Below, piece after piece: positions 9,085-35,562 of a stretch of 64,000 nt of DNA. The DNA comes from Shigella phage vB_SdyM_006. The DNA is taken from sequence record MK295204. The stretch is one strand, 5' to 3'. The translations under genes were made by a program, and so were the position numbers. Position 1 is the stretch's first letter. Every line of letters starts with the position of its first letter. A model generated the notes under the pieces. It saw only the letters and a list, made by a program, of their open reading frames with translations. It did no database searches and was not told where the DNA came from.

Positions 9085-10956
9085 TTAGTCTAATTTATCA
9101 TTTAATATTGGTTTAGCAATATGTTTTGTTCTATGGATAACTTCTTTTTGTTTACCTTCGTTAAACCCACGAGAAGCAGGATTTCCAAGATATCCACAGG
9201 TACGACGGACAACAGACATTTTCTTTACATCCATTTCACCACATTTTGGACATTTAAACCCATTTTCTGTAGGAATAAATTCTCCATGGAATTCACATGT
9301 AAAGCATTGGTCAACAGGAGTATTTGTTCCAAAATAATCTAGATTTTCTACAGCATAATCCCAGACCTGTTCTAATGCATCAAGATTATCCTTCATATTA
9401 GGGAGCTCAACATAAGAAATATGACCACCAGATGCAATACGGTGATAATCCTTTTCAAATTCAATTTTCTCAAATGGATTAACTTTACGTTCAACATCAA
9501 GATGGAAACTATTTGTGTACCAACCTTTATCTGTAATTCCTTTAACAGAACCAAATTCTGCTTTATCTAATTTGCAGAATCTGTGACATAAACTTTCTGC
9601 GGGAGTAGAATAAAGACTAAATGCATATCCAGTTTCTTCTTTCCATTTAGAAAGATAATAATTTATTTCTTTAAGAATATGTTTACCAAATTCTTGGGCT
9701 TCTTTATTATCAAATGGTTCATCATTAAAAATCAGTTTTAATGTTTCGTGTAAACCAATATATCCTAGCGAAATAGAACTTCGTCCATTTTTAAATAATG
9801 ATAATATTTCGTCATTAGGGTTCATACGAACACCAAAAGCGCCACCACAATATAAAATTGGAGCTACAGAAGCTTTTGCACCACGTAAAGAATCAATTCT
9901 AGTCATAAGAGCAGTATAACAGAGGCCAAGACGATCTCTCAATGATTGGATATATGATTCTTTAGATAAATTGTCACTACCTAATTCCAGGGCTATTCTA
10001 GGAAGATTTAATGTGACTACACCTAGATTATTGCGTCCATCTAAAATTTCTTTGCCATTTTCTTTATAGACACTTAAAAAAGATCTACACCCCATAGGAG
10101 AAACTGGGACCGAACTACCGGTTATTTCTTTATTAATTTTAGACGAAATAATATCTGGGTACATTCTTTTAGCTGAACATTCTAATGCTAATTTTTTAAT
10201 AAAATAATTAGGGTCTTCAGGTTTAAGATTAATTCCTTCTTCAATAAAGAAGACTAATTTAGGAAATATCGCAGTTACTTCATCTTTGCCTAAGCCTTTA
10301 ATTCTATTTTTAAGAATAGCTTCTTGGATAACTGTGCCGGCCCATGAAGTAGAAGTTCCAAAAGAAATAGTCACAAATGGCGTTTGTCCATTAGAGCTAA
10401 AAAGCGTATTTATTTCATATTCATACGCTTGGAAAGCGTCATAAACATCTTTTTCTGTCTTCTTCATAGCATAATCTTCCCAATCAGGAATACGCCATTC
10501 AAAAGCTTCATTAAGATGTTTTTGGTATGTAGCTTCTACGTAAGGCTCAAGAACAACATCAACATTTGCAAATGTTGTTCCACCATATTGATGAGAAGCA
10601 ACTTGGGCTGTGACTTGGGCCATAATTGCACAAGCTACACCAATTGATTTAGGTGTTTCTATTTCCGCGTTACCAAGCTTAAATCCATTTTCAAACATGC
10701 CTTTTAAATCAACTAAACAACAATTTGTAAAAGGCAGTGATACACTATAATCTAAGTCATGATAATGAATAATACCTTTGTCGTGTGCTTCTACGACATT
10801 AGAAGGCAATCTACTACGAGCCACGTACTTGGAAGCAATTCCGGCCAGTAAGTCACGTTGAGTAGGAAAGACACCATAGGGCTTGTTTGCATTTTCTGTA
10901 GAAAGTTCATTTGATTCACGATTACATACCTCATTAATTTGAGAAATTAAGTTCAT
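9085..10956 (-). CDS. nrdD: Anaerobic ribonucleoside-triphosphate reductase NrdD (glycyl radical enzyme)
   Basis: 623 aa; C-terminal glycyl radical motif RTCGYLG and Zn-ribbon CxxC pairs; continuous ORF with no intron interruption. Confidence 0.95.
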   Translation of the reverse strand: MNLISQINEVCNRESNELSTENANKPYGVFPTQRDLLAGIASKYVARSRLPSNVVEAHDKGIIHYHDLDYSVSLPFTNCCLVDLKGMFENGFKLGNAEIETPKSIGVACAIMAQVTAQVASHQYGGTTFANVDVVLEPYVEATYQKHLNEAFEWRIPDWEDYAMKKTEKDVYDAFQAYEYEINTLFSSNGQTPFVTISFGTSTSWAGTVIQEAILKNRIKGLGKDEVTAIFPKLVFFIEEGINLKPEDPNYFIKKLALECSAKRMYPDIISSKINKEITGSSVPVSPMGCRSFLSVYKENGKEILDGRNNLGVVTLNLPRIALELGSDNLSKESYIQSLRDRLGLCYTALMTRIDSLRGAKASVAPILYCGGAFGVRMNPNDEILSLFKNGRSSISLGYIGLHETLKLIFNDEPFDNKEAQEFGKHILKEINYYLSKWKEETGYAFSLYSTPAESLCHRFCKLDKAEFGSVKGITDKGWYTNSFHLDVERKVNPFEKIEFEKDYHRIASGGHISYVELPNMKDNLDALEQVWDYAVENLDYFGTNTPVDQCFTCEFHGEFIPTENGFKCPKCGEMDVKKMSVVRRTCGYLGNPASRGFNEGKQKEVIHRTKHIAKPILNDKLD

Positions 10957-11423
10957 TTTAAAGATTTCCTTAAAGCTTTTTTGTATCTTTTAGTTAACTC
11001 GGTTTTTGTATCTGTTTCTAGATATTCAAATCCGTGTAATACCATTTCTTCTATCATTTCTTCTTTAGACAACCGAGAAAACTCTTTAGATTTGTCTATT
11101 ATATACTGTGGATGGATAGGATTTTCACTGCTGTCTTTTTTTAAGTAAAATAAAAGGTTCTCCATCCAATTAATATATTCTACTTTAGATTTTAGTCCTG
11201 AACGATTAAATTTATGCTTCAACTGTCCTTCTGCTGCATTACATAAAGGGCATAATAATCCACGAACTCTTCCAGCTTCAGGACCAGATAACGCATGGTC
11301 ATGGTCCAAATGATTTTTTTGAACATCTTTATCTAATTCTAAACGACAAATACAACAAAGGCCCTTTTGGGCCTTATATAATTTTTCTTTTTCTTGTTTA
11401 AATGATTTTCCGGATAATAACAT
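10953..11423 (-). CDS. 49: Endonuclease VII (Holliday junction resolvase) gp49
   Basis: 156 aa, near-colinear with T4 endo VII (CCICRLELDKDVQKNHLDHDH..GLLCPLCNAAEGQ). Confidence 0.9.
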   Translation of the reverse strand: MLLSGKSFKQEKEKLYKAQKGLCCICRLELDKDVQKNHLDHDHALSGPEAGRVRGLLCPLCNAAEGQLKHKFNRSGLKSKVEYINWMENLLFYLKKDSSENPIHPQYIIDKSKEFSRLSKEEMIEEMVLHGFEYLETDTKTELTKRYKKALRKSLK

Positions 11424-11865: not shown

Positions 11866-12138
11866 TTATCGTTCATTAATATATTCCTTAAATTTATCAA
11901 ATCCACCAATAGATTTATCATCAATAAAAATCTGTGGCATTGTTAATCCAACTTCTGAGCGTCGGTTTAAACGTTGTACTAATTCATCAATAACTTGTTT
12001 ATTAAGAACAGGTCCTTCAGATTCTGAAACAGGAATAAAAGTATATTCGAGTTTTTTAACATCTGCTAATCGTTTAGCGTTAATACATGGAACACATTTA
12101 AAGTGTTTAGGGTCAAATCCGTAAATTTCTATTTTCAT
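11866..12138 (-). CDS. nrdC: Thioredoxin/glutaredoxin NrdC
   Basis: 90 aa with CVPC active site; resembles T4 NrdC. Confidence 0.8.
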   Translation of the reverse strand: MKIEIYGFDPKHFKCVPCINAKRLADVKKLEYTFIPVSESEGPVLNKQVIDELVQRLNRRSEVGLTMPQIFIDDKSIGGFDKFKEYINER

Positions 12139-12652: not shown

Positions 12653-12832
12653 TTAAAAAGTCATTTTGCAATGTCGACATTTATATTTTAAGTCTTTATA
12701 TTGCCATGATACTAATTGCACCTGGTTTGTCCCACACCCCGGACAGTGCGGAATATTTTTAGAAGCATCTTCACGACGCTTCACCATTTCTTCTACTTTT
12801 TCCCAATTAATAATATCTTTATGAAGAACCAT
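12653..12832 (-). CDS. Small zinc-ribbon protein (below ORF-track size cut-off)
   Basis: My own translation: about 59 aa with CPGC ... CRHC; fills the gap between flanking ORFs. Confidence 0.4.
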   Translation of the reverse strand: MVLHKDIINWEKVEEMVKRREDASKNIPHCPGCGTNQVQLVSWQYKDLKYKCRHCKMTF

Positions 12833-12834
12833 TA

Positions 12835-13830
12835 TTATTCCTTAAAATTGTAGTAGCTTTTTACTTCTTGTAAATAAACATCATGGATAAACTTATTCCA
12901 AAATTCTGTATCAACCTGTTTAGGCATACCATTTTTAGCAGCAATTATTGCTTTCTTTTCAACATCATCTACAATTGCTTCTAAATTCTGTTGAACGAGT
13001 TTAAAATCGATTTTACCTTGTTTGATATCTAATATTTGTCCTGACATTTTTAATGGCATAACTAAATCGCCAGTATCATAGATTTCGGCTAATTGTACAC
13101 CTGCTCTATATGCATGGCTTAAAGCTTTCCAATCAATACCTTCATTAGCTTCTGCTTTACGAGCTCGTTCGCCATAATTTTGTTCTAGTTTAACAAGAAC
13201 TTTGTTGAATTCAGCATTAGTGAGTGTATCTTGGAATTTTCGGTCTAATAGGCTATAAAATGTTTGTTTACCCGTTTTTTCATTTTCTGTGCTTGTCCAG
13301 AATGCAACACTTGATTTAGGAAGAGCACCTTTCATATGTTCTAAACGAATTGGTGCTCCATTATCAAACACAGGACCCCAGTCATTTGAAACTTTTAACG
13401 CAGCTCTTAACGCAGCTAATCTTGAACCTTTTACACCGTATTTCGATGCCTGTTTACGAACATATCCTAAATAGGCCTTCATATTAGTTGTATAAAATCT
13501 CGAACGATTATCTCTAATAAACCGCCATACTTCTGGTAAATCAGAATGAATGACCATTTGGTCTGGTGCATGGATTAAATCAAGCGCTACGGTTTCACCA
13601 GATGCCGCTAGGTTTAAAAAGTATTTTAACGAATATAATTCATGATCAACATCATCTGAAGTGTTCTTAGATGACCCAGGATTGGTATTCATGTTAAAAT
13701 GCTCTTTAACACGACATGAAATAATACTTTTGGCATCTGGAATATAAATTTCTTTATAATCTAAATCCGATTCTGGAGTACTAGTTCCATATAAATGAGA
13801 ACCAAATAAAATTTTTGCTACAGATTTCAT
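12835..13830 (-). CDS. Pol-beta-superfamily nucleotidyltransferase-like protein
   Basis: 331 aa; N-terminal FGSHLYGTSTPESDLDY fits the GS-x(9-13)-DxD NTase motif, with a later ALDLIH acidic motif. Confidence 0.65.
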   Translation of the reverse strand: MKSVAKILFGSHLYGTSTPESDLDYKEIYIPDAKSIISCRVKEHFNMNTNPGSSKNTSDDVDHELYSLKYFLNLAASGETVALDLIHAPDQMVIHSDLPEVWRFIRDNRSRFYTTNMKAYLGYVRKQASKYGVKGSRLAALRAALKVSNDWGPVFDNGAPIRLEHMKGALPKSSVAFWTSTENEKTGKQTFYSLLDRKFQDTLTNAEFNKVLVKLEQNYGERARKAEANEGIDWKALSHAYRAGVQLAEIYDTGDLVMPLKMSGQILDIKQGKIDFKLVQQNLEAIVDDVEKKAIIAAKNGMPKQVDTEFWNKFIHDVYLQEVKSYYNFKE

Positions 13831-13832
13831 TA

Positions 13833-14306
13833 TTATTCCTGTTCTTGTAAAGAATTAATAGTATCATTATAAATTCGTTTAGCTTTTTCTTTGTCCGAAA
13901 CGTATCCAAAAAGATAATCTAAAGCTTCTTTCGAAATATCTTGATACTTCACTTTCCACTCTTTGTAGTATTCGGTCAATTGCTGGTCTTTTTTAAACAA
14001 TTCATCTAATAAAGGAATGACTTTTTTATAATGGAAAATACAGGTTCCAATAACTTCCGAAATGTATTCATCTTTAACAGGAGTGCCAGACGTAATTAAA
14101 TTATCTGTGATTTGTAAATTAAAGAACGCTGTTTTGCAATCTGATAACACTGGATTGTTAAAAGCATACAAGTCTTCACATAATTCAGTTATTCGTTTTT
14201 CTGCTTTCTTTTGTTTTGCTGACGGGTTAACAAGCCCACCGAATAATTGGATTGGAGGATATTTTGCAATATTAGAAATAAAAGTTCTTTGTAATTGTAA
14301 AGACAT
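13833..14306 (-). CDS. Hypothetical protein
   Basis: 157-aa ORF coupled to the upstream NTase gene. Confidence 0.5.
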   Translation of the reverse strand: MSLQLQRTFISNIAKYPPIQLFGGLVNPSAKQKKAEKRITELCEDLYAFNNPVLSDCKTAFFNLQITDNLITSGTPVKDEYISEVIGTCIFHYKKVIPLLDELFKKDQQLTEYYKEWKVKYQDISKEALDYLFGYVSDKEKAKRIYNDTINSLQEQE

Positions 14307-15505: not shown

Positions 15506-16228
15506 TTATTTAAATTCGATAAAGTTACAATGTTTGCCTTTAAAAGATTCATGGATTTCTTCAGTTAAAGATTTCTCACGTAATTCAATATCTTTTTTGA
15601 TATTAGTATGTTCTAAACGAGCTTTAAGTTTTCTTTGTGCAATCTTTTTAGGGATATAATCACAGAATAGCCAAACACCGCCAACAATAATGACAAACAC
15701 AAGACAACATACAACTGCAAATAGAATAGCACCTAGAATATAAGCACCGATTGTTAATCCAGTTCCAAGAGTAATACCATAATAAGTAAGAATATTAATT
15801 AATGCTGTTCCACCTAAAGAACCAAAAGCACCACATAAAGCAGCAATAAGGAATGTAAAGAACAAACTTCGACCTAATAAATTCCAGAAATACCCACAGA
15901 TGCTTTTTGGCATACTAGCTTTAGGTGTAATTAATTTAGTTAATTTATAGTGCCAAGTATCTTTTTTAATTTCAATTTTCGGTGCAACAGAAGATAATCT
16001 GATGTCAACAATATCATTACCCCAGATATGATACTCATTATCAATAACTTTAAAATCTGTATTAACAATATAGCCATTTGAAAATACAAAGATATCGTGT
16101 TTATTAGATTTAGCGAGTTCAATTAAATTATTTGCAATTATAGATGCTTCTTCTTTAGTGGCCCATTCAGAATTAATACGGTGCCATTTAGGAGTTTCGG
16201 TATTAATTAAAAGTTCAATAGTATACAT
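15506..16228 (-). CDS. Membrane protein (soluble N-domain plus two TM helices plus charged C-tail)
   Basis: 240 aa; long hydrophobic stretches LFFTFLIAALCGAFGSLGG and GAILFAVVCCLVFVIIVGGVWLF. Confidence 0.55.
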   Translation of the reverse strand: MYTIELLINTETPKWHRINSEWATKEEASIIANNLIELAKSNKHDIFVFSNGYIVNTDFKVIDNEYHIWGNDIVDIRLSSVAPKIEIKKDTWHYKLTKLITPKASMPKSICGYFWNLLGRSLFFTFLIAALCGAFGSLGGTALINILTYYGITLGTGLTIGAYILGAILFAVVCCLVFVIIVGGVWLFCDYIPKKIAQRKLKARLEHTNIKKDIELREKSLTEEIHESFKGKHCNFIEFK

Positions 16229-19940: not shown

Positions 19941-20314
19941 TATGATAACGATAACAAATACTTAGTCTTTTTACAAAGTGTCATAATTTCATCTAATGCA
20001 GATTGTCCTGCACTACAAGTCGAGTCGTAGATTTCTTCTCCTAAAGAAATTATTTTATCTAATATTTCTGTAGATGATTCTATTTTTGTTGGGAAATTTC
20101 TAGTGTAAGCACCACCACTCCCTAGATATATCTCAACAAATGTGTCTATTAATTCTGGCATATCTTCATAGAAATCTTCATATACTTTATGATGCGCATA
20201 GCTTTTTGTTTCGAAGTGATATGAGTGCATGTAAGAAGAACTTATTAAACATAATCCAATAAATTCACTATGCCTTGTAGACTTGGGTTTTACAAACGTA
20301 GAAAAATCATTCAT
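19940..20314 (-). CDS. Hypothetical protein
   Basis: 124-aa ORF. Confidence 0.5.
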   Translation of the reverse strand: MNDFSTFVKPKSTRHSEFIGLCLISSSYMHSYHFETKSYAHHKVYEDFYEDMPELIDTFVEIYLGSGGAYTRNFPTKIESSTEILDKIISLGEEIYDSTCSAGQSALDEIMTLCKKTKYLLSLS

Positions 20315-20609
20315 CGTGTACTAATTCCTTTTTAAGATTGTATACGTATTCTTGTGCTGCTGTTTTGCCATCTTCACTACATTTGTTATTTTGACAGTTT
20401 GTTTCTTCCCATTTGGTTCTAATGAAAGCATAAAACTGCTCAGATTCTTCTTTAGAAGGTTCTTTCAATTTACTGTACACAGACATGGCACCTTCAGCGT
20501 ATACATTAAAATATTTATCGTCTGATGCATACGCGCTAGAAAACCCAATGCATAGTGTTAAAACACATGCAATTATGCCAGGTGAAAAGTAATTTTTGAA
20601 CTCGGCCAT
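20307..20609 (-). CDS. Secreted/periplasmic small protein
   Basis: 100 aa; hydrophobic N-terminal segment ending AYASD (signal-peptide-like). Confidence 0.45.
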   Translation of the reverse strand: MAEFKNYFSPGIIACVLTLCIGFSSAYASDDKYFNVYAEGAMSVYSKLKEPSKEESEQFYAFIRTKWEETNCQNNKCSEDGKTAAQEYVYNLKKELVHDE

Positions 20610-20636
20610 AAGGCCTCCATTATTCTAGTAAATCAT

Positions 20637-20849
20637 TTAATGACTTATAATCTTAAATTTATAAATCATCTTGACTTCAGAGAAATAGTTGAGTAGCTTT
20701 TTATACTGCAAATAATCAGCATGACTTTGGGTTTTATCAAACTCAAGCTCTGCCATTTTTAAACACGGCTTAAATTCTCTTATATGAATACCTAGTTCTA
20801 ATGCTGACATATTTCTTAAAGTTTTTTTAGAAAGCATATCAATAGTCAT
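20637..20849 (-). CDS. Hypothetical protein
   Basis: 70-aa ORF after tk. Confidence 0.4.
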   Translation of the reverse strand: MTIDMLSKKTLRNMSALELGIHIREFKPCLKMAELEFDKTQSHADYLQYKKLLNYFSEVKMIYKFKIISH

Positions 20850-20870: not shown

Positions 20871-21437
20871 TTATTTATTAAATTCAAAATAATGCTTACG
20901 ACAAAATGATTTGTACTTATCATCACCTCCTATTTCAATTGTGTCTCCTTCTTTAACTGCTTTTCCTGAAGGGCTACACTTTGCTGTATGGGTTGCTTTT
21001 CTTCCACACCAACAAACTGCTTTTAGTTCTTCTAATTTATCAGCCCAGGCTAATAAAGCAGCTGAGCCTTCAAACAATTCACCTTTAAAATCAGTTTTTA
21101 ACCCAAAGCACATAACTGGGATCTGATGATTGTCGACAATTTTTGTCAATTGAAGAACCTGAGCCTTTGTTAAAAATTGACATTCATCAATAAGAATAGC
21201 TGCATTGTTTGTACCAATACTTAAATAAAGATTATACAAATCAGTTTCTTTAGAAAATAAAATACACTGTTCTTTTATCCCAACCCTACTAGAAATAACA
21301 CCTTTATCACGAGTATCAATATCGGGTTTAAGAAGTAAACAACTCATTTTTTGCTCTTTATAATTATTATTAACGGATAACAATTTTAAAGATTTACCAG
21401 CTGCCATAGAACCATATACAAAATACAATTGAGCCAT
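20871..21437 (-). CDS. tk: Thymidine kinase
   Basis: P-loop YGSMAAGKS and C-terminal Zn cluster CWCGRKA...CRKH; start trimmed to MAQLYFVYGSM by alignment to the T4 Tk N-terminus. Confidence 0.9.
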   Translation of the reverse strand: MAQLYFVYGSMAAGKSLKLLSVNNNYKEQKMSCLLLKPDIDTRDKGVISSRVGIKEQCILFSKETDLYNLYLSIGTNNAAILIDECQFLTKAQVLQLTKIVDNHQIPVMCFGLKTDFKGELFEGSAALLAWADKLEELKAVCWCGRKATHTAKCSPSGKAVKEGDTIEIGGDDKYKSFCRKHYFEFNK

Positions 21438-27897: not shown

Positions 27898-28163
27898 TAT
27901 AAATGTCCTCGCTTAGAGTTAATGTATGTCTCGACTTCTCTTTTTGTACGGTCAAAAGCTTCTTTTTGCTCATATACTTCTTGAGATTTTTTATATTGCT
28001 TATTAGCATTGATTTCTTTATAATTAGCAGCATATACGTAAATATAAAAGGCCCAGACCATAGGACAAATCATGGATGTAAATTTAGTATAAAACGGTTT
28101 GTTTACAATAGGATATAAACACCAAAAGAAGAACGTAAATATAATATAATTAGCCCAAATCAT
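27897..28163 (-). CDS. Small membrane protein (two TM)
   Basis: 88 aa, aromatic-rich hydrophobic helices. Confidence 0.45.
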   Translation of the reverse strand: MIWANYIIFTFFFWCLYPIVNKPFYTKFTSMICPMVWAFYIYVYAANYKEINANKQYKKSQEVYEQKEAFDRTKREVETYINSKRGHL

Positions 28164-28639
28164 TTTGTGTCTCCTTTAATTTCATCAAGAAAGTCAAAAT
28201 AAGCGTTAGGATAAAACAATAGAATAAATGGTGTCATTGCTAGCCCAATAGAATACAATATCATACTCAATAAATCTGTAGAATAATGTATAAAGAAAGG
28301 CCAAACTATTAAAATATACATCATTATCATAAAAATAGTGTTCATCATATAAATATTGGACAATTTATGCGGTACACTGTAATACCCGTTTTGGTATCTA
28401 TTGTTATTATTACTTAATGAAATTACAATATCACCTACCGTCTCTTTATCGAAACCTAAATTTATTGTTTCAAACATGACAAAGAGTCCTAAAACTATAC
28501 AACTTATTAAAAATAATAATGAATATGCAAACCCTGCTCCTGTGTTTGCCCACATATCAAATGAGAACAATGTATTTCCAGATAACACAAGTAAAAATAT
28601 AAAGACAACTTTGTTGATTTGAGATAATAAATAATTCAT
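28160..28639 (-). CDS. Polytopic membrane protein (about four TM)
   Basis: 159 aa with four hydrophobic segments. Confidence 0.5.
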   Translation of the reverse strand: MNYLLSQINKVVFIFLLVLSGNTLFSFDMWANTGAGFAYSLLFLISCIVLGLFVMFETINLGFDKETVGDIVISLSNNNNRYQNGYYSVPHKLSNIYMMNTIFMIMMYILIVWPFFIHYSTDLLSMILYSIGLAMTPFILLFYPNAYFDFLDEIKGDTK

Positions 28640-29127
28640 AATTTTTTCCTACATTGCATAATATATTCTTCAAGAAAAGTTAATTTATTTTCCAGAACGT
28701 CTAAATATTCTTTTTCAAAATTAAAAACAAATTCAATAAGGTCAACATTAGTATTAAAGCATTTTCTATAAGATTCAAAAGATGAAAAATAATGTGCATT
28801 ATCTACGCCAACAAAAAAAGTAATGGCTATATCATCCTTTTTAAAACCAAATAACACATTTGATGATTTTAATGTATCTTCAATTTGGTCAAACTGTATA
28901 ATTGTTTTATTTTTGTCGTCTTTATAAGAAGTAGAATAACACCATATGGATTTAAATGGGTACACTATATCATTTAAAGAACAGTGATTCAACAAGATAT
29001 TTTTTATAGCATTAGCTTTAGCTTCAGGCATATTAAATAGTGGAATCACATAAGAAGTATCGCTTAGTTTTGAATATTTAGAAATAGGGTCTACTAATCT
29101 TAGTACTTCATTAAGCCATTGTTGCAT
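28636..29127 (-). CDS. Hypothetical protein
   Basis: 163-aa ORF. Confidence 0.5.
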   Translation of the reverse strand: MQQWLNEVLRLVDPISKYSKLSDTSYVIPLFNMPEAKANAIKNILLNHCSLNDIVYPFKSIWCYSTSYKDDKNKTIIQFDQIEDTLKSSNVLFGFKKDDIAITFFVGVDNAHYFSSFESYRKCFNTNVDLIEFVFNFEKEYLDVLENKLTFLEEYIMQCRKKL

Positions 29128-30950: not shown

Positions 30951-31374
30951 TATAGAAGTCTAATTCATTGGTATACTTAGAATTTACATAAATTTGTTTA
31001 TTTTTACTAAAACCTGAAATACCTTTTAAAACACCTTTGGCTTGATTATAGTCTATAAAGAACACATGTTCTTTATTATCGTACATAAATCTTAAAGCAA
31101 AAGTATCTTTATAGATATTAGATTCTTTTGTAACGATAGAATTAGTAGATTTATCAAGTGGCAAATTACATGCAAGAGCACAAGTATACTCACACTCATA
31201 TAATGTCACATAATTTGTATTAGTATACAAAAAATCTAGAATCTCATCAGAGGTCCAAGCTTTCTCAATATCATTTCCTAGAACACGTAGTTTCCAAAAA
31301 GTGGATTGACGTATATCAGCCCAGATAACATTATTATCTTTGCCTGCTTCAGGTCCTTTAAAAATATCAATCAT
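30904..31374 (-). CDS. Paralog family member 1 of 3
   Basis: 156 aa; same family (CNLPL, VFFIDYN, YIEKCRRKIK). Confidence 0.5.
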   Translation of the reverse strand: MIDIFKGPEAGKDNNVIWADIRQSTFWKLRVLGNDIEKAWTSDEILDFLYTNTNYVTLYECEYTCALACNLPLDKSTNSIVTKESNIYKDTFALRFMYDNKEHVFFIDYNQAKGVLKGISGFSKNKQIYVNSKYTNELDFYIEKCRRKIKGHTHEK

Positions 31375-31664
31375 TATATCCTCTCACAAAAAGCCCAATT
31401 AGCATGATAAACTGAAGCGCCTTTAGTATCATTCATGCACACTAAGTCTACAGGAGACACCACTCTATATAAAACAGGTTCTCCACCTAATGAACGCGCA
31501 GCTCTTCCGGCATAAATTTTAGCCAAACCTAAATCTTCAGTAAAGAAAACTCGGTCTAAATTTTTCTTACGTCCTTTTTCAGAAATAGTCTCAGTTGTTT
31601 CTGGTGGAAGTAACATATGTTCAATACCACATACAGAAGAAGAACCATGATAAAAAGTTTTCAT
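31374..31664 (-). CDS. Possible Arr/Tpt1-like mini ADP-ribosyltransferase
   Basis: 96 aa; N-terminal FYHGSS and downstream R-V-F-F-T ... YRVV-P resemble the rifampin ADP-ribosyltransferase (Arr) core as I remember it; not verified. Confidence 0.4.
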   Translation of the reverse strand: MKTFYHGSSSVCGIEHMLLPPETTETISEKGRKKNLDRVFFTEDLGLAKIYAGRAARSLGGEPVLYRVVSPVDLVCMNDTKGASVYHANWAFCERI

Positions 31665-31732
31665 TATAGACTCCGTTTTTAAATTATGTAGCTATTATAC
31701 ACACAATTTTTAATTTGTACATACTATAAACG

Positions 31733-31754
31733 AAAAAAGGAACCAAAAGGTTCC
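31733..31754 (-). terminator. Hairpin GGAACC-UUUU-GGUUCC plus U6 on minus strand
   Basis: Read directly; after the stop of the 31762-32178 ORF. Confidence 0.45.
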
Positions 31755-31761
31755 TTTAATT

Positions 31762-32178
31762 TTAGATACATCCACCACAAGAACTATGTCGCCAATCTTC
31801 TTCGTTAATATGTGGATAAAGAGCATATAAGATTTTTTCGATATCTTTAAATCCATGTCTTTTTAAAGACGAAACTAATGAGTTAGTATCGTGTTTCAAC
31901 ATTAATTGGACCCAACTTTCTGGACTTAACCCTGCTGTATAAGAATCCCATTCTTCAGACCAATTATCGTCAAAACGCCAGGTGTCATAAGATTTACGTG
32001 TATCAAATTCTTCATTACCTAAACCAGTTAGGCTAATTCCATCGATACTAATATTCCATTGTCCAAAGCATAGCGTTGGATAAGACCCAGTCCACTCTAC
32101 AAAAATTTTCATGTAATTCCTTATAAACATACCACAATTGCAGTTAAAAATATAAAAACCATAACAGGAACATACCAA
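31762..32178 (-). CDS. Hypothetical cysteine-rich protein
   Basis: 138-aa ORF (real start may be the internal MKIFVEW); Trp/acidic-rich with C-terminal SSCGGCI. Confidence 0.4.
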   Translation of the reverse strand: MVCSCYGFYIFNCNCGMFIRNYMKIFVEWTGSYPTLCFGQWNISIDGISLTGLGNEEFDTRKSYDTWRFDDNWSEEWDSYTAGLSPESWVQLMLKHDTNSLVSSLKRHGFKDIEKILYALYPHINEEDWRHSSCGGCI

Positions 32179-32230
32179 ATGGTTTTTATAGCATCATTAG
32201 GTTTTTCTGAGTCAAACATGATAATCTCGA

Positions 32231-32584
32231 TTAATAATAAATAGTATTCCCAACATAAATTTTGTTTGGATTTGTAATATTATTTAAAATTTGTAAATAT
32301 TCAACAGACACGCCAAGGTTCATAGCAATTTCGCTCAGTGTGTCATTAAATCGTACTGTATATGAAAATAAATTTGAATCACGATTAATTGACGCAGTTA
32401 AAAAATCAACAGAATTCAGAACTTCAAAAGTCATCGCTTTGTCGTTGCCACTATTAAAGCCAATACCACGCTTAAGAATAGAAACGATAGTTGTACCTTC
32501 ACCTGTTTCAGAAGCACCGATGATGTTACGTGTATCAACCATAAAACGTGATAAATCATCTGCAGAAGTTAAAATAATTTTCAT
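32231..32584 (-). CDS. LysM-domain protein
   Basis: 117 aa; C-terminal YTVRFNDTLSEIAMNLGVSVEYLQILNNITNPNKIYVGNTIYY fits the LysM consensus. Confidence 0.55.
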   Translation of the reverse strand: MKIILTSADDLSRFMVDTRNIIGASETGEGTTIVSILKRGIGFNSGNDKAMTFEVLNSVDFLTASINRDSNLFSYTVRFNDTLSEIAMNLGVSVEYLQILNNITNPNKIYVGNTIYY

Positions 32585-33127: not shown

Positions 33128-33204
33128 TGGTACACCTACGGGAATTCGAATCCCGGTTACACGCTCGAAAGGCGTGGGTCCTAGACCACTAGACGATAGG
33201 TGCA
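33128..33204 (-). tRNA. tRNA-Glu (anticodon UUC)
   Basis: Manual fold: acceptor GCACCUA/UAGGUGU, anticodon stem CACGC with loop CUUUCGA, T-loop UUCGAAU, encoded CCA. Confidence 0.7.
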
Positions 33205-33210
33205 TTAAAA

Positions 33211-33302
33211 TGGAGGAGAGTATGGGATTCGAACCCATGGAACAGCGTAACTGTCCAACGGTTTTCAAGACCGTCTCAATAATCCATCTCTGACAACTCT
33301 CC
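33211..33302 (-). tRNA. tRNA-Ser (anticodon UGA), class II
   Basis: Perfect acceptor GGAGAGU/ACUCUCC, anticodon loop CUUGAAA, long variable arm, T-loop UUCGAAU, CCA. Confidence 0.8.
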
Positions 33303-33309
33303 AATATAA

Positions 33310-33627
33310 TTAAAACAGTAGACTATAAACAGTACCTTTACAATCTATAGGTTGTGTTTTTGAATATTCTTTAAATAGATTTAAATAACCAATTTCTTCA
33401 GGTTCCCATTGTCCTTCTAAACCATAACATGAACAATGTGAGCCGTTAACTTCCCAAAATATATCATTACTATCTTTGAAGATTACAGTAGCATACCCAG
33501 AATAATCTTCATAATCGTAATATGCTAAAATGATTTCTTTGTCATTAAGTGAATCCATAGGGATTTGGAATTCATGACAGATGTCTTCTTTTGAAGTAAA
33601 CAGTTCCATAAACACATTAGTTTTCAT
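33310..33627 (-). CDS. Hypothetical protein between tRNA genes
   Basis: ORF track gives 33310-33720, but the N-terminal part overlaps tRNA-Asp; trimmed to internal Met (about 105 aa). Confidence 0.4.
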   Translation of the reverse strand: MKTNVFMELFTSKEDICHEFQIPMDSLNDKEIILAYYDYEDYSGYATVIFKDSNDIFWEVNGSHCSCYGLEGQWEPEEIGYLNLFKEYSKTQPIDCKGTVYSLLF

Positions 33628-33650
33628 ATCAATATCCTCAAAATTAATTT

Positions 33651-33726
33651 TGGCGGTCTTACCGAGAATCGAACTCGGTGCTGTTCCGTGACAGGGAACT
33701 ATGTTAACCAGGTACACCATAAGACC
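33651..33726 (-). tRNA. tRNA-Asp (anticodon GUC)
   Basis: Acceptor GGUCUUA/UAAGACC, anticodon stem GUUCC with loop CUGUCAC, T-loop UUCGAUU, CCA. Confidence 0.8.
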
Positions 33727-33756
33727 TTAAAAATGTACCCATCCGGCTTTCCAGTC

Positions 33757-33857
33757 TGGTGAAGGGTTGTCACCTCTAGTTTAAACCTGCTAGTCAAGTA
33801 ATAATTGCATATCGTCCAATTATCAAAACCGTCTAGGTTATATTACACCACTTCCTA
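33757..33857 (-). ncRNA. Possible small stable RNA in the tRNA cluster (not foldable as a canonical tRNA)
   Basis: About 100 nt between tRNA-Asp and tRNA-Gly, begins with tgg (CCA-like 3' end on minus) and contains local hairpins; T4 carries small stable RNAs in the equivalent position. Confidence 0.2.
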
Positions 33858-33919
33858 GAATACCGTCTAAGCGGACTTGATCGACGTAGATTACACCATA
33901 TACGTCTGATTGTGGAATT

Positions 33920-33993
33920 TGGAGCGATCTACGGGTATCGAACCCGTATCTTCTGGGTGGAAACCAGAAATAATAGCCATTATACTAAGATCG
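33920..33993 (-). tRNA. tRNA-Gly (anticodon UCC)
   Basis: Perfect acceptor GCGAUCU/AGAUCGC, anticodon stem UCUGG with loop UUUCCAC, T-loop UUCGAUA, CCA. Confidence 0.8.
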
Positions 33994-34615
33994 CATATTT
34001 ATTAATAAATCTTCTTGCTTGGGTATGACTTAATCCTATATGTTTAGCAAATTTATTTAAGTTACCTCTTATTGAAATATCAAATGATTTTAATATTTCT
34101 AATCTATAATTAATTTCGTCTTTTGACAATGTAGAGGCATTATTAATAGAAATTTTGTTTTTAGATATATCCGAATGTCTCTTATTTTTAAAACCAAACG
34201 AATTTTTCTTTTTGCTAAAATCATATAATCCGAGTCTAAGTCTTTTCTTAAATGTATTAACTTGTTTACTTATAGTTAATTTAGATTTTGGCAATGAATT
34301 TATATAATCCCAACCACCTTCACCACCAACTTTTAAATTATATGTATTTTTGCTTTTAACAAATTTTTCTGTAACTATTTTGGCTTCATGTATAAACATG
34401 TCATACTTATTTTTATGAAATTTTAAAATAGTTTTTTCAAAATTTTCTTTGCCATATTTTTCTATGGCTTTTTTCAAAATCTTACCTGAACCAAAATATC
34501 CATCTTCTAAATCTTTGGTTTTATGAACACCTATATAAATTTTATTATTTATTTTATTTTTAATTTTGTATGTATAATAAAACATTATAGCCTTATTTAT
34601 CTTTTGGTACTCCAT
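33980..34615 (-). CDS. GIY-YIG homing endonuclease (seg-like) inside the tRNA cluster
   Basis: 211 aa; N-terminal YTYKIKNKINNKIYIGVHKT ... GYFGSG is a GIY-YIG motif; lysine-rich C-terminal DNA-binding region. Confidence 0.75.
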   Translation of the reverse strand: MEYQKINKAIMFYYTYKIKNKINNKIYIGVHKTKDLEDGYFGSGKILKKAIEKYGKENFEKTILKFHKNKYDMFIHEAKIVTEKFVKSKNTYNLKVGGEGGWDYINSLPKSKLTISKQVNTFKKRLRLGLYDFSKKKNSFGFKNKRHSDISKNKISINNASTLSKDEINYRLEILKSFDISIRGNLNKFAKHIGLSHTQARRFINKYAILV

Positions 34616-34779
34616 TCTTTATTAGTTGCTTTATTAACAGCAGTAGAATAAGAATTTTTAATATCTTCTGTAACAGAATAGCCAGTTAACATAGTAGAAA
34701 TTAAAATAACATATCCAAGCATTAATAAAATACAAGATAAAAATCCTGCAATAATAAGAATTGTACCTAAAGTAGTCAT
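34597..34779 (-). CDS. Small membrane protein (trimmed from the 34597-34890 ORF, which overlaps a tRNA)
   Basis: Internal Met yields about 60 aa with one long hydrophobic helix. Confidence 0.35.
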   Translation of the reverse strand: MTTLGTILIIAGFLSCILLMLGYVILISTMLTGYSVTEDIKNSYSTAVNKATNKEWSTKR

Positions 34780-34798
34780 ATTGTTCTCACAAATTATT

Positions 34799-34875
34799 TG
34801 GTGACCCACCATGGAATCGAACCATGCTCCAACGCTTATGAGGCGTTCGCTTTCAACCAGTAAGCTAGAGGGCCT
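34799..34875 (-). tRNA. tRNA with anticodon CAU (Met or Ile2-type)
   Basis: Anticodon stem AACGC/GCGUU with loop CUCAUAA, T-arm CAUGG-UUCGAUU-CCAUG, CCA; acceptor has one mismatch. Confidence 0.65.
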
Positions 34876-34882
34876 TGCAATT

Positions 34883-34966
34883 GGTGGCACCGGGTAGACT
34901 CGAACTACCGAAGGCCGAAGCCTGGAGATTTACAGTCTCCTGTCATTGCCGCTAGACTACGATGCC
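34883..34966 (-). tRNA. tRNA-Tyr (anticodon GUA), class II
   Basis: Anticodon stem GGAGA/UCUCC with loop CUGUAAA, long variable arm, acceptor GGCAUCG/CGGUGCC, CCA. Confidence 0.7.
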
Positions 34967-35011
34967 TTTTCTTATCAATAACGACTAAAAATAATCGTTA
35001 TTAATCAGAAT

Positions 35012-35088
35012 TGGTACACACTACTGGATTCGAACCAGTGACCTACGGTTTAGAAGACCGTTGCTCTATCCATCTGAGCTAAGCATGC
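35012..35088 (-). tRNA. tRNA-Arg (anticodon UCU)
   Basis: Anticodon stem ACGGU/ACCGU with loop CUUCUAA, T-loop UUCGAAU, CCA; acceptor stem has three G-U pairs. Confidence 0.6.
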
Positions 35089-35089
35089 A

Positions 35090-35380
35090 TTATAAGTACT
35101 GTTTAATCAGTTCTTCGTTATTTTTAAAAAGAATAAAAATATTATCACGAACTTCAGTATCTGAGATATGCCATTTCATAGCATCAATTAAAATGTCTTT
35201 TGGGATCATATTATATAAATTATTTAGTAAAGCAATATTATTTATATCAATATCAACTTCAAATAATTCAAAAATACAACACGAAATAGAATCATAAAAA
35301 TCTTTAATGTCTATTTCATACTTAGACAAATTATTTATAAATTCTGTTTTAGCTTGTTCTGGATTATGTGCTTTAAACAT
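35090..35380 (-). CDS. Hypothetical protein
   Basis: 96-aa ORF between tRNA-Arg and tRNA-Trp. Confidence 0.45.
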   Translation of the reverse strand: MFKAHNPEQAKTEFINNLSKYEIDIKDFYDSISCCIFELFEVDIDINNIALLNNLYNMIPKDILIDAMKWHISDTEVRDNIFILFKNNEELIKQYL

Positions 35381-35402
35381 TTTTATTCCTATTATTCTAA
35401 AA

Positions 35403-35477
35403 TGGCAGGCTCTGTAGGAATCGAACCCACGTCTTCGGATTTGGAATCCGGTATTCTACCGACTGAACTAAGAACCT
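35403..35477 (-). tRNA. tRNA-Trp (anticodon CCA)
   Basis: Anticodon loop UUCCAAA, D-arm UAGUUCAGUCGGUAGAAU, T-loop UUCGAUU, CCA. Confidence 0.7.
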
Positions 35478-35478
35478 T

Positions 35479-35562
35479 TGGCGGGCAGTGTAGGATTCGA
35501 ACCTACGTCGTCAAATGACACGGATTAACAGTCCGCTGCTTAATCCACTCAGCCAACTACCC
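35479..35562 (-). tRNA. tRNA-Asn-like (anticodon GUU) with an unusually long variable arm
   Basis: Anticodon arm CGGACUGUUAAUCCG is nearly identical to E. coli tRNA-Asn, but the variable region is about 13 nt (GUCAUUUGACGAC), giving 84 nt. Confidence 0.55.

Follow-up and report, generated by a model that had tools for sequence, protein, structure and literature searches.

An RlaP-family nucleotidyltransferase in the nrdC–tk interval of a T4-like phage: NrdC.11 as a candidate nucleotide-restoring enzyme of phage tRNA repair

What is the substrate of a nucleotidyltransferase encoded between nrdC and tk in a T4-like phage genome? The question is raised by a DNA stretch of 64,000 nucleotides from Shigella phage vB_SdyM_006 (sequence record MK295204; hereafter called the window), in which an open reading frame (ORF) on the minus strand encodes a protein of 331 amino acids. 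A preliminary description, made from the sequence alone, had named the product a nucleotidyltransferase (NTase) of the DNA polymerase beta (Pol-beta) superfamily with unknown substrate, and could not tell whether it corresponds to a conserved T4 nrdC.x protein. We find that the gene, judged by homology and position, is the ortholog of T4 nrdC.11 and that its product belongs to the RlaP family. By analogy with bacterial RlaPs, NrdC.11 is probably an RNA 3′-OH nucleotidyltransferase, which would act with Pnk and Rnl1 as the third, nucleotide-restoring enzyme of phage tRNA repair.

12835..13830, minus strand: coding sequence (CDS) of 331 amino acids plus TAA stop, an ATG-to-TAA ORF read here as the NrdC.11 ortholog, a long-form RlaP-family Pol-beta nucleotidyltransferase

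The N-terminus of the protein (MKSVAKILFGSHLYGTSTPESDLDYKE) carries the GS-x(9–13)-DxD pattern that the preliminary description had reported. Within residues 9–25 (FGSHLYGTSTPESDLDY), G10-S11 is followed by ten residues and D22-L-D24, and the segment 10–24 thus fits the pattern. A Pfam search matched residues 8–134 to positions 25–142 of the 249-position hidden Markov model (HMM) of PF10127 (RlaP, ‘RNA repair pathway DNA polymerase beta family’), with 49.9 bits against a gathering cut-off of 23 (E = 4.5e-13); the generic NTP_transf_2 model stayed below threshold. PHROG 388 (‘nucleotidyltransferase’) matched the full length of the protein (E = 6e-113), and precomputed annotations place PF10127 in all close and distant homologs. 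T4 NrdC.11 has likewise been assigned to the PF10127 family (PMC12776372).

A survey of conservation, which the preliminary description had proposed, detected homologs by tblastn in 1559 of 50,697 phage records, spanning at least 80% of the protein length in 1444 of them. A word-indexed protein search returned 2760 relatives. An exhaustive HMMER search of 1.84 billion cluster representatives found 3274 clusters (50% identity) at E ≤ 1e-3 and 723 at E ≤ 1e-30, and nearly all of the best 150 clusters were 300–350 amino acids long. A chance ORF at 12835–13830 is ruled out by these thousands of homologs; the gene is real and conserved, and looks expressed.

Conservation was analysed in two sets: an alignment of 111 sequences with identities down to about 25%, and a set of 146 sequences, consisting of 145 representatives of 50%-identity clusters (at least 290 amino acids) and the window protein. 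In the first, G10, G15, S21, D22, D62, G78, G220, K235, H239, A240 and R242 were invariant. In the second, G10, S11, D22, D24, Y131 and R242 were 100% conserved, D60 was conserved in 97%, and K235, H239 and R222 in 99%. The residues fall into three motifs:

13759..13803, minus strand: hG[GS]-x10-DxD motif with G10, S11, D22 and D24, the predicted nucleotide/metal-binding loop and first two catalytic carboxylates
13639..13656, minus strand: DDVDHE (residues 59–64), in which D62 is the inferred third catalytic carboxylate
13105..13134, minus strand: DWKALSHAYR (D233, W234, K235, H239, R242), a conserved basic patch common to short RlaPs

The preliminary description had named the absence of a third acidic residue as a result that would speak against its assignment. 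Residue 62 is aspartate in 140 sequences of the second set and glutamate in the other 6, and since this carboxylate is conserved in 146 of 146, that objection falls away. K235 and R242 are invariant even when the short RlaPs are aligned, and the basic patch may bind an NTP or an RNA 3′ end. The sequence evidence thus identifies the window protein as an RlaP-family Pol-beta nucleotidyltransferase with a complete catalytic set. The Pol-beta call of the preliminary description is borne out by the PF10127 score of 49.9 bits, the invariant GS…DxD…D set, and NTases as the best structural neighbours. Its remark that 250 amino acids or more follow without a recognised motif was right in part: D62 and the K235/H239/R242 motif lie in this region, and PHROG 388 spans the whole protein.

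The preliminary description had listed cGAS/DncV-like and CCA-adding enzymes among the members of the superfamily. The superfamily stands, and the family within it is RlaP and neither of these, with no SMODS, PolyA_pol or PADLOC hits. A cGAS/DncV-like identity was rejected for want of family, defence-profile or structural support: there was no SMODS/CD-NTase Pfam hit at E ≤ 1, no PADLOC hit, and the top 50–60 structural neighbours included neither a CD-NTase nor cGAS or OAS. A CCA-adding enzyme or class II poly(A) polymerase was rejected for want of family or structural support, as there was no PolyA_pol (PF01743) Pfam hit and no NCBIfam hit, and CCA enzymes were likewise missing from the listed structural neighbours. 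For aminoglycoside/lincosamide NTases (KNTase-like) and minimal NTases (MNT, PF01909), neither a family HMM above threshold nor a close structural match was found.

To place the gene, T4 proteins were compared with the window by local tblastn. T4 NrdC.11 (NP_049709.1, 336 amino acids), annotated ‘nucleotidyltransferase’ in the T4 record, aligned to 12850–13830 with 59.7% identity over 335 residues. The same comparison located the following T4 genes:

10956–11423: gp49 (endonuclease VII)
11881–12129: nrdC
12656–12811: nrdC.2, C-terminal half only
19946–20834: rI.-1/rI/rI.1
20874–21437: tk

The NTase gene lies between nrdC and tk, in the nrdC–tk hyperplastic region where the preliminary description had placed it. 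Homology and synteny mark it as the ortholog of T4 nrdC.11, which lies between nrdC and rI/tk, a gene that is conserved and not well characterised, which settles the question of a T4 nrdC.x counterpart. T4 nrdC.1, nrdC.3–nrdC.10 and mobD had no counterpart in the window by tblastn of T4 proteins. That nrdC.11 is among the few genes of the nrdC.x block kept in this phage counts in favour of a role in tRNA repair. The two proteins are homologous over their full length, and the PF10127 limits of T4 NrdC.11 (residues 7–134, HMM 24–142) match those of the window NTase. The surroundings differ: in T4 the mobD homing endonuclease gene lies directly upstream of nrdC.11 and nrdC.10 downstream, whereas the neighbours in the window are a 157-amino-acid ORF of PHROG 3576 and an nrdC.2-like zinc ribbon. 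The segment nrdC.11–mobD.3 is dispensable, having been lost from a viable genome-reduced T4 (PMC9825161), and that it can be deleted in the laboratory fits an accessory counter-defence gene. In the T4 RefSeq record (NC_000866.4), the translation of nrdC.11 (L003:13436–14446) holds an X (…SDLPDXWKF…), which reflects an ambiguous base in that record.

The window protein is 100% identical to the product of CDS phiP43_198 of Proteus phage phiP4-3 (MG696114.1; Straboviridae, Bragavirus), which is labelled ‘thioredoxin’ in GenBank and ‘nucleotidyltransferase’ in the RefSeq copy. The protein has no thioredoxin similarity. The label looks like an error, which seems to have spread from the gene name nrdC.11. 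UniRef names and dozens of further records of T4-like phages give NrdC.11 homologs the same label.

An AlphaFold2 model of the NTase was built on the 111-sequence alignment (mean predicted local distance difference test score 93.7, predicted template modelling score 0.84). In this model, the NTase core consists of strands 2–9, 23–30, 44–46 and 61–67 and short helices, with D22 and D24 at the start of the second strand and D62 on strand 61–67. Residues 118–131 and 227–327 are helical and end in a long terminal helix (308–327). Two domains are predicted:

13480..13830, minus strand: N-terminal Pol-beta NTase domain, about residues 1–117
12838..13152, minus strand: C-terminal helical domain, residues 227–331 together with helix 118–131, resembling a HEPN/KNTase-C four-helix bundle

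The predicted fold thus joins a Pol-beta NTase to a helical domain similar to HEPN or KNTase-C; no solved structure is closely related, and in the modelled two-domain arrangement the conserved basic patch faces the NTase domain. Foldseek, proposed in the preliminary description, gave no match at E ≤ 1e-3 in a Protein Data Bank (PDB) set that lacks the crystal structure of P. fluorescens RlaP (PfRlaP), and sequence searches of the same set with the protein and with the 111-sequence profile gave nothing meaningful. The best PDB structural neighbours were nonetheless NTase folds, and a structural search of BFVD returned other phage NTases only.

The first RNA repair system to be described was the pathway by which T4 mends tRNA with Pnk and Rnl1. 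The classical target of the anticodon nuclease PrrC is tRNA-Lys, and RloC-type nucleases, which excise the wobble base, have been proposed to defeat Pnk/Rnl1 repair. The name RlaP reportedly goes back to Burroughs and Aravind in 2016, as quoted in later papers. Iyer et al. predicted that RlaP restores nucleotides taken out by RloC-type nucleases ahead of ligation (PMC7824862).

A preprint of December 2025 describes two Pseudomonas RlaPs (from P. fluorescens and P. aeruginosa), whose genes lie between rtcB and rtcA (PMC12776372). Both label RNA and leave proteins and DNA, whether genomic or synthetic, unlabelled. They add one or two nucleoside monophosphates (NMPs) to the RNA 3′-OH; any NTP is accepted, dATP too, and Mn2+ or Co2+ works best (PMC12776372). 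In a mimic of an anticodon-cleaved tRNA, the preferred end was the 3′ end of the 5′ half, and RlaP partly rescued aminoacylation of tRNA missing one loop nucleotide prior to ligation (PMC12776372). In total RNA, the bacterial enzymes labelled full-length tRNAs and rRNAs (PMC12776372). The substrate that the preliminary description had left blank is no longer fully open, since bacterial RlaPs extend RNA 3′-OH ends by one or two nucleotides in vitro (PMC12776372).

How far does this carry over to the phage protein? The window NTase and the RlaPs of bacterial rtcB–rlaP–rtcA operons share the Pfam family, the triad of acidic residues and, judged by the model, the plan of an NTase domain plus a helical domain. 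In the PfRlaP crystal structure, an N-terminal NTase domain is followed by a C-terminal helical domain, whose last helix packs back on the NTase domain (PMC12776372). An association with RNA ligases is seen for bacterial RlaP and for relatives of the window NTase alike. The window NTase differs from bacterial RlaP in its separate sequence cluster and in an insertion of 85–95 residues with its own conserved basic motifs. It would also partner a 5′-phosphate ligase (Rnl1) and not RtcB, and has no adjacent ligase gene. In the published sequence similarity network of PF10127, T4 NrdC.11 stands apart in cluster 5, and the bacterial RlaPs form cluster 1a (PMC12776372).

The gene neighbourhoods of relatives link the long form to RNA repair. 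We examined 35 diverse IMG/VR loci encoding a long-form NTase 38–44% identical to the window protein, calling and scanning the flanking ORFs. One locus (L067) has the order NTase, RNA ligase (PF09414), Pnk; another (L061) has NTase, one ORF, an HD-domain gene, RNA ligase and, farther on, an AAA_33 kinase; a third (L072) carries an Rnl1-like gene, with an AAA_33 kinase immediately ahead of the NTase. RtcB and Thg1 were each found twice within 6 kb of the NTase. In marine contigs (L010–L013) with a 327-amino-acid homolog, an RNA_ligase gene lies three genes upstream, and in Sinorhizobium phage phiM19 the gene annotated ‘NrdC.11’ has an annotated 2′-5′ RNA ligase on one side and an RNA ligase on the other. 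In Gordonia phage Trax, the genes near the short RlaP are those of Pnk, an RNA ligase and a Ro-like protein, together with a cluster of tRNA genes; mycobacteriophages hold the main concentration of short RlaPs (342 records) and of Trax-type RNA ligases (296 records). Long-form relatives of NrdC.11 are thus linked to ligase, Pnk and HD genes.

In 10 loci, one of them a duplicate, the next gene 3′ of the NTase is the HD-domain gene, which encodes roughly 170 amino acids; in L061 one gene lies between the two:

L077, 6914–7426: HD gene 3′ of the NTase
L078, 6932–7465: HD gene 3′ of the NTase
L080, 6920–7399: HD gene 3′ of the NTase
L082, 6068–6580: HD gene 3′ of the NTase
L084, 6903–7418: HD gene 3′ of the NTase
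L088, 6926–7450: HD gene 3′ of the NTase
L092, 6909–7418: HD gene 3′ of the NTase
L093, 6926–7423: HD gene 3′ of the NTase
L095, 3322–3900: HD gene 3′ of the NTase
L061, 7740–8231: HD gene one gene beyond the NTase

The best NCBIfam similarity of the HD proteins is to the HD part of Cca/CCA-repair models, and is weak and far below cut-off. This NTase–HD pair of environmental phages is conserved and resembles a split CCA-enzyme architecture. An HD phosphohydrolase would be a plausible supplier of the 3′-OH that RlaP needs.

A second line of evidence is the distribution of NrdC.11 and Rnl1, for which homologs were counted per genus in the 50,697 phage records, at genus level and with kinship ignored:

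Escherichia phages: NrdC.11 607, Rnl1 638
Klebsiella phages: NrdC.11 286, Rnl1 287
Shigella phages: NrdC.11 82, Rnl1 82
Aeromonas phages: NrdC.11 75, Rnl1 77
Acinetobacter phages: NrdC.11 69, Rnl1 69
Vibrio phages: NrdC.11 59, Rnl1 57
Enterobacter phages: NrdC.11 56, Rnl1 56

A further 378 Synechococcus phages (T4-like cyanophages) have gp32 yet are in neither list. The two counts agree closely in each of these genera, and the co-occurrence is suggestive. That phiP4-3 itself encodes both Rnl1 and Pnk also counts in favour of a shared pathway.

These observations would fit the following mechanism. NrdC.11 would be a divalent-metal-dependent (probably Mn2+-dependent), template-independent RNA 3′-terminal nucleotidyltransferase, in which D22, D24 and D62 hold two metals and the NTP. 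The 3′-OH end of the RNA would lie in the cleft between the NTase and helical domains, held by K235, H239 and R242 and by the basic flanks of the insertion, and would receive one or two NMPs. During infection, Pnk would first heal the ends of a host-cleaved tRNA, NrdC.11 would next replace the lost nucleotide, for example the wobble base excised by an RloC-type anticodon nuclease, and Rnl1 would finally seal the break. The activity resembling that of bacterial RlaP, the tRNA target and the counter-defence role are what we infer for the phage protein.

If this holds, the two-enzyme T4 tRNA repair would become a three-enzyme pathway that reverses RloC-type damage, thought to be irreparable by the phage. 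T4-like phages would then already hold an answer to RloC, and a function could be assigned to an accessory gene that nearly all enterobacterial T4-like phages carry. T4 nrdC.11/RlaP is a catalogued gene and the RNA-repair hypothesis has been published (PMC7824862; PMC12776372), the latter crediting it to Burroughs and Aravind (2016); the window gives supporting context and not a discovery. Our additions are small: the insertion with its fast-evolving core, the NTase–HD pair, the genus-level co-occurrence with Rnl1 and the widespread ‘thioredoxin’ misannotation.

Several points weigh against this proposal. T4 NrdC.11 has been called an RlaP ‘of unknown function’ (PMC12776372), and our view of its activity is drawn by analogy. 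The PF10127 match covers only HMM positions 25–142 of 249, and the insertion of 85–95 amino acids could alter the substrate. With PfRlaP missing from the PDB set, a superposition was impossible. In phiP4-3, Rnl1 (phiP43_041, record 27953–29071) and Pnk (phiP43_048, record 31363–32361) both lie beyond the window, and the NTase, at record 120128–121123, is roughly 75–90 kb from their genes on the circular genome; T4 nrdC.11 is not adjacent to rnlA or pseT either. No RNA ligase gene adjoins the NTase in the window, where its neighbours are small ORFs, the nrdC.2-like zinc ribbon and nrdC. The co-occurrence of NrdC.11 and Rnl1 is one of genus totals, not of single records, and ignores kinship, and Streptomyces and Campylobacter phages have Rnl1 homologs without being among the top NrdC.11 genera. 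Finally, as the authors of the preprint point out, repair would be non-templated, and the right base would therefore be restored in only a fraction of the products (PMC12776372).

Could an RNA 3′-end nucleotidyltransferase have another job? It might rebuild acceptor ends in the manner of a CCA-adding enzyme, on the phage's nine tRNAs or those of the host, or tail RNAs of host or phage and so alter their stability or block aminoacylation. The window holds nine tRNA genes at 33128–35562 on the minus strand (Glu, Ser, Asp, Gly, Met, Tyr, Arg(tct), Trp and Asn; no tRNA-Lys is in the cluster), and the bacterial enzymes label RNA broadly and without NTP specificity (PMC12776372). The NTase–HD pair of the relatives mirrors the NTase and HD parts of bacterial CCA enzymes, although the matches of the HD proteins to Cca are weak and far below cut-off. 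E. coli Cca, a class II CCA-adding enzyme with an NTase head and an HD domain, belongs to the same superfamily and is also a template-independent RNA 3′-end nucleotidyltransferase; environmental phages with an NrdC.11-like gene followed by an HD gene show this arrangement in split form. The window NTase, in contrast, does not match the head, neck or body of CCA enzymes in sequence, and phiP4-3 lacks an adjacent HD gene. No PolyA_pol hit was obtained and no CCA enzyme appeared among the structural neighbours. RlaPs add one or two nucleotides of any kind, whereas Cca adds CCA, and bacterial RlaPs, when offered both, chose the broken end in the anticodon loop in preference to the acceptor end (PMC12776372). 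The ligases and Pnk beside the relatives, moreover, serve internal breaks and not the rebuilding of 3′ ends. We therefore regard acceptor-end repair or tailing as unlikely.

One feature that sets NrdC.11 apart from the bacterial enzymes, and that might bear on its choice of substrate, is the insertion.

13153..13437, minus strand: insertion of 85–95 amino acids, about residues 132–226, absent from short RlaPs

Short phage RlaPs, such as gp88 of Gordonia phage Trax (244 amino acids) and ORF31 of Bacillus phage CM1 (253 amino acids), match PF10127 from end to end. They share G10, S11, D22, D24, D62, K235 and R242 with the window NTase at about 25% identity, and have no equivalent of residues 132–226; T4 NrdC.11 contains the insertion as well. 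When residues 132–226 were removed in silico, the PF10127 match grew from HMM 25–142 (49.9 bits) to 25–178 (56.9 bits). HMM positions 179–249 still had no sequence match, and the corresponding region is helical in the model. Searched by themselves, neither the insertion nor the C-terminal 104 amino acids gave a significant Pfam hit. In the window NTase, the insertion is flanked by KYGVKGSRL (130–138) and YGERARKA (219–226). These flanks are basic and nearly invariant in the 146-sequence set (QAxKYGxKGSR at 127–137 and YGxRARxA at 219–226), whereas the core (141–218) is poorly conserved. The model shows a helix (135–151), a three-stranded meander (176–183, 187–194 and 197–200) and a second helix (205–227).

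Between Proteus phage SJ_PmiM and phiP4-3, gp32 and Rnl1 are 100% and Pnk 98% identical, and the NTase (SJ_PmiM copy L096:2047–3039) only 72% overall. The divergence, with the ratio of non-synonymous to synonymous substitution rates (dN/dS), is distributed as follows:

Residues 1–131: 81% identity, dN/dS about 0.14
Residues 141–218 (insertion core; window 13177–13410): 34% identity, dN/dS about 0.54, with dS saturating
Residues 219–331: 88% identity, dN/dS about 0.10

Synonymous divergence is high along the entire gene (dS about 0.75–0.9), and neighbouring genes have diverged too, nrdC being 89% and the upstream ORF 85% identical. Because all three have diverged, the nrdC–tk interval as a whole has the look of a recombinant patch that contains, in the insertion core, a fast-evolving module.

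It is tempting to speculate that the insertion is a candidate RNA-recognition or specificity module. It might give T4-type NrdC.11 a different choice of substrate, such as particular cleaved tRNAs with selective restoration of the wobble nucleotide or, less likely, a quite different target (tailing of host tRNAs or a decoy oligonucleotide). We consider such a shift doubtful, a step below acceptor-end repair in likelihood. If NrdC.11 had a quite different target, the variable core would follow host defences.

Nucleotidylylation of a substrate other than RNA, whether a small molecule, as by aminoglycoside/lincosamide NTases, or a protein, as by MntA on HEPN toxins, DrrA or GlnE, for example to inactivate a host toxin or an antibiotic-like compound, is very unlikely. 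It would draw on generic fold matches only (9–13% identity). The structural neighbours kanamycin nucleotidyltransferase, the minimal NTase + HEPN pair and Hailong HalB resemble the protein at fold level (9–16% identity, Foldseek E > 1e-3). These proteins act on aminoglycosides or HEPN toxins or in dATP oligomerisation, and have no family HMM hits in common with the window NTase. RlaP, by contrast, is the only sequence family above threshold, bacterial RlaPs label neither proteins nor DNA (PMC12776372), and the gene neighbourhoods of the relatives concern RNA ends. The synthesis of a signalling or decoy oligonucleotide that disturbs host immune signalling (oligodeoxyadenylate as by Hailong HalB, or a CD-NTase/OAS-type product) is the least probable of all, as the likeness is confined to the NTase core, there is no PADLOC and no SMODS/CD-NTase Pfam hit, and the conserved partners of the relatives are ligase, Pnk and HD genes and not sensors or effectors.

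The genes around the NTase are tightly packed. The stop codon of the upstream ORF (13833–14306; stop at 13833–13835) ends 2 nucleotides ahead of the NTase ATG, and the downstream ORF (12653–12832) begins 2 nucleotides past the NTase stop.

13836..13840, minus strand: putative Shine–Dalgarno sequence AGGAA, read from the sequence, 5 nucleotides 5′ of the NTase ATG and within the end of the upstream ORF

This close packing suggests that the NTase is co-transcribed with its neighbours, and its translation is possibly coupled to that of the upstream ORF. A scan for sigma-70 promoters found 31 sites, with 31.6 in shuffled sequence; there being no excess over the shuffled level, the scan is uninformative on the transcription unit.

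The downstream zinc-ribbon ORF (12653–12832, minus strand) encodes 59 amino acids with a CxxC…CxxC pattern, shares 65% identity with the C-terminal half of T4 NrdC.2 and belongs to PHROG 1474. Weak similarity was seen to zinc ribbons of SprT and IS1595, and to PDC-S64, a candidate system of PADLOC (E = 3e-4). The upstream ORF (13833–14306, minus strand), of 157 amino acids, belongs to PHROG 3576, and its SJ_PmiM counterpart is 85% identical; Pfam and PADLOC searches gave no match for it, and it is not homologous to T4 MobD.1. In T2, an ORF of 149 amino acids overlaps the NTase start. Farther upstream, an ORF at 15506–16228 (minus strand, 240 amino acids, PHROG 944) encodes a predicted membrane protein with weak, sub-threshold similarity to a SAVED-fused 2TM effector domain (Saf_2TM, E = 0.004) and to PspB. 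On the other side of the interval, the nrdD ORF (9085–10956, minus strand) encodes 623 amino acids in the window and overlaps the gp49 stop by 4 nucleotides; the nrdD CDS in GenBank (record 122995–124938) has 1944 nucleotides (647 amino acids) and differs from the window ORF at its C-terminal end.

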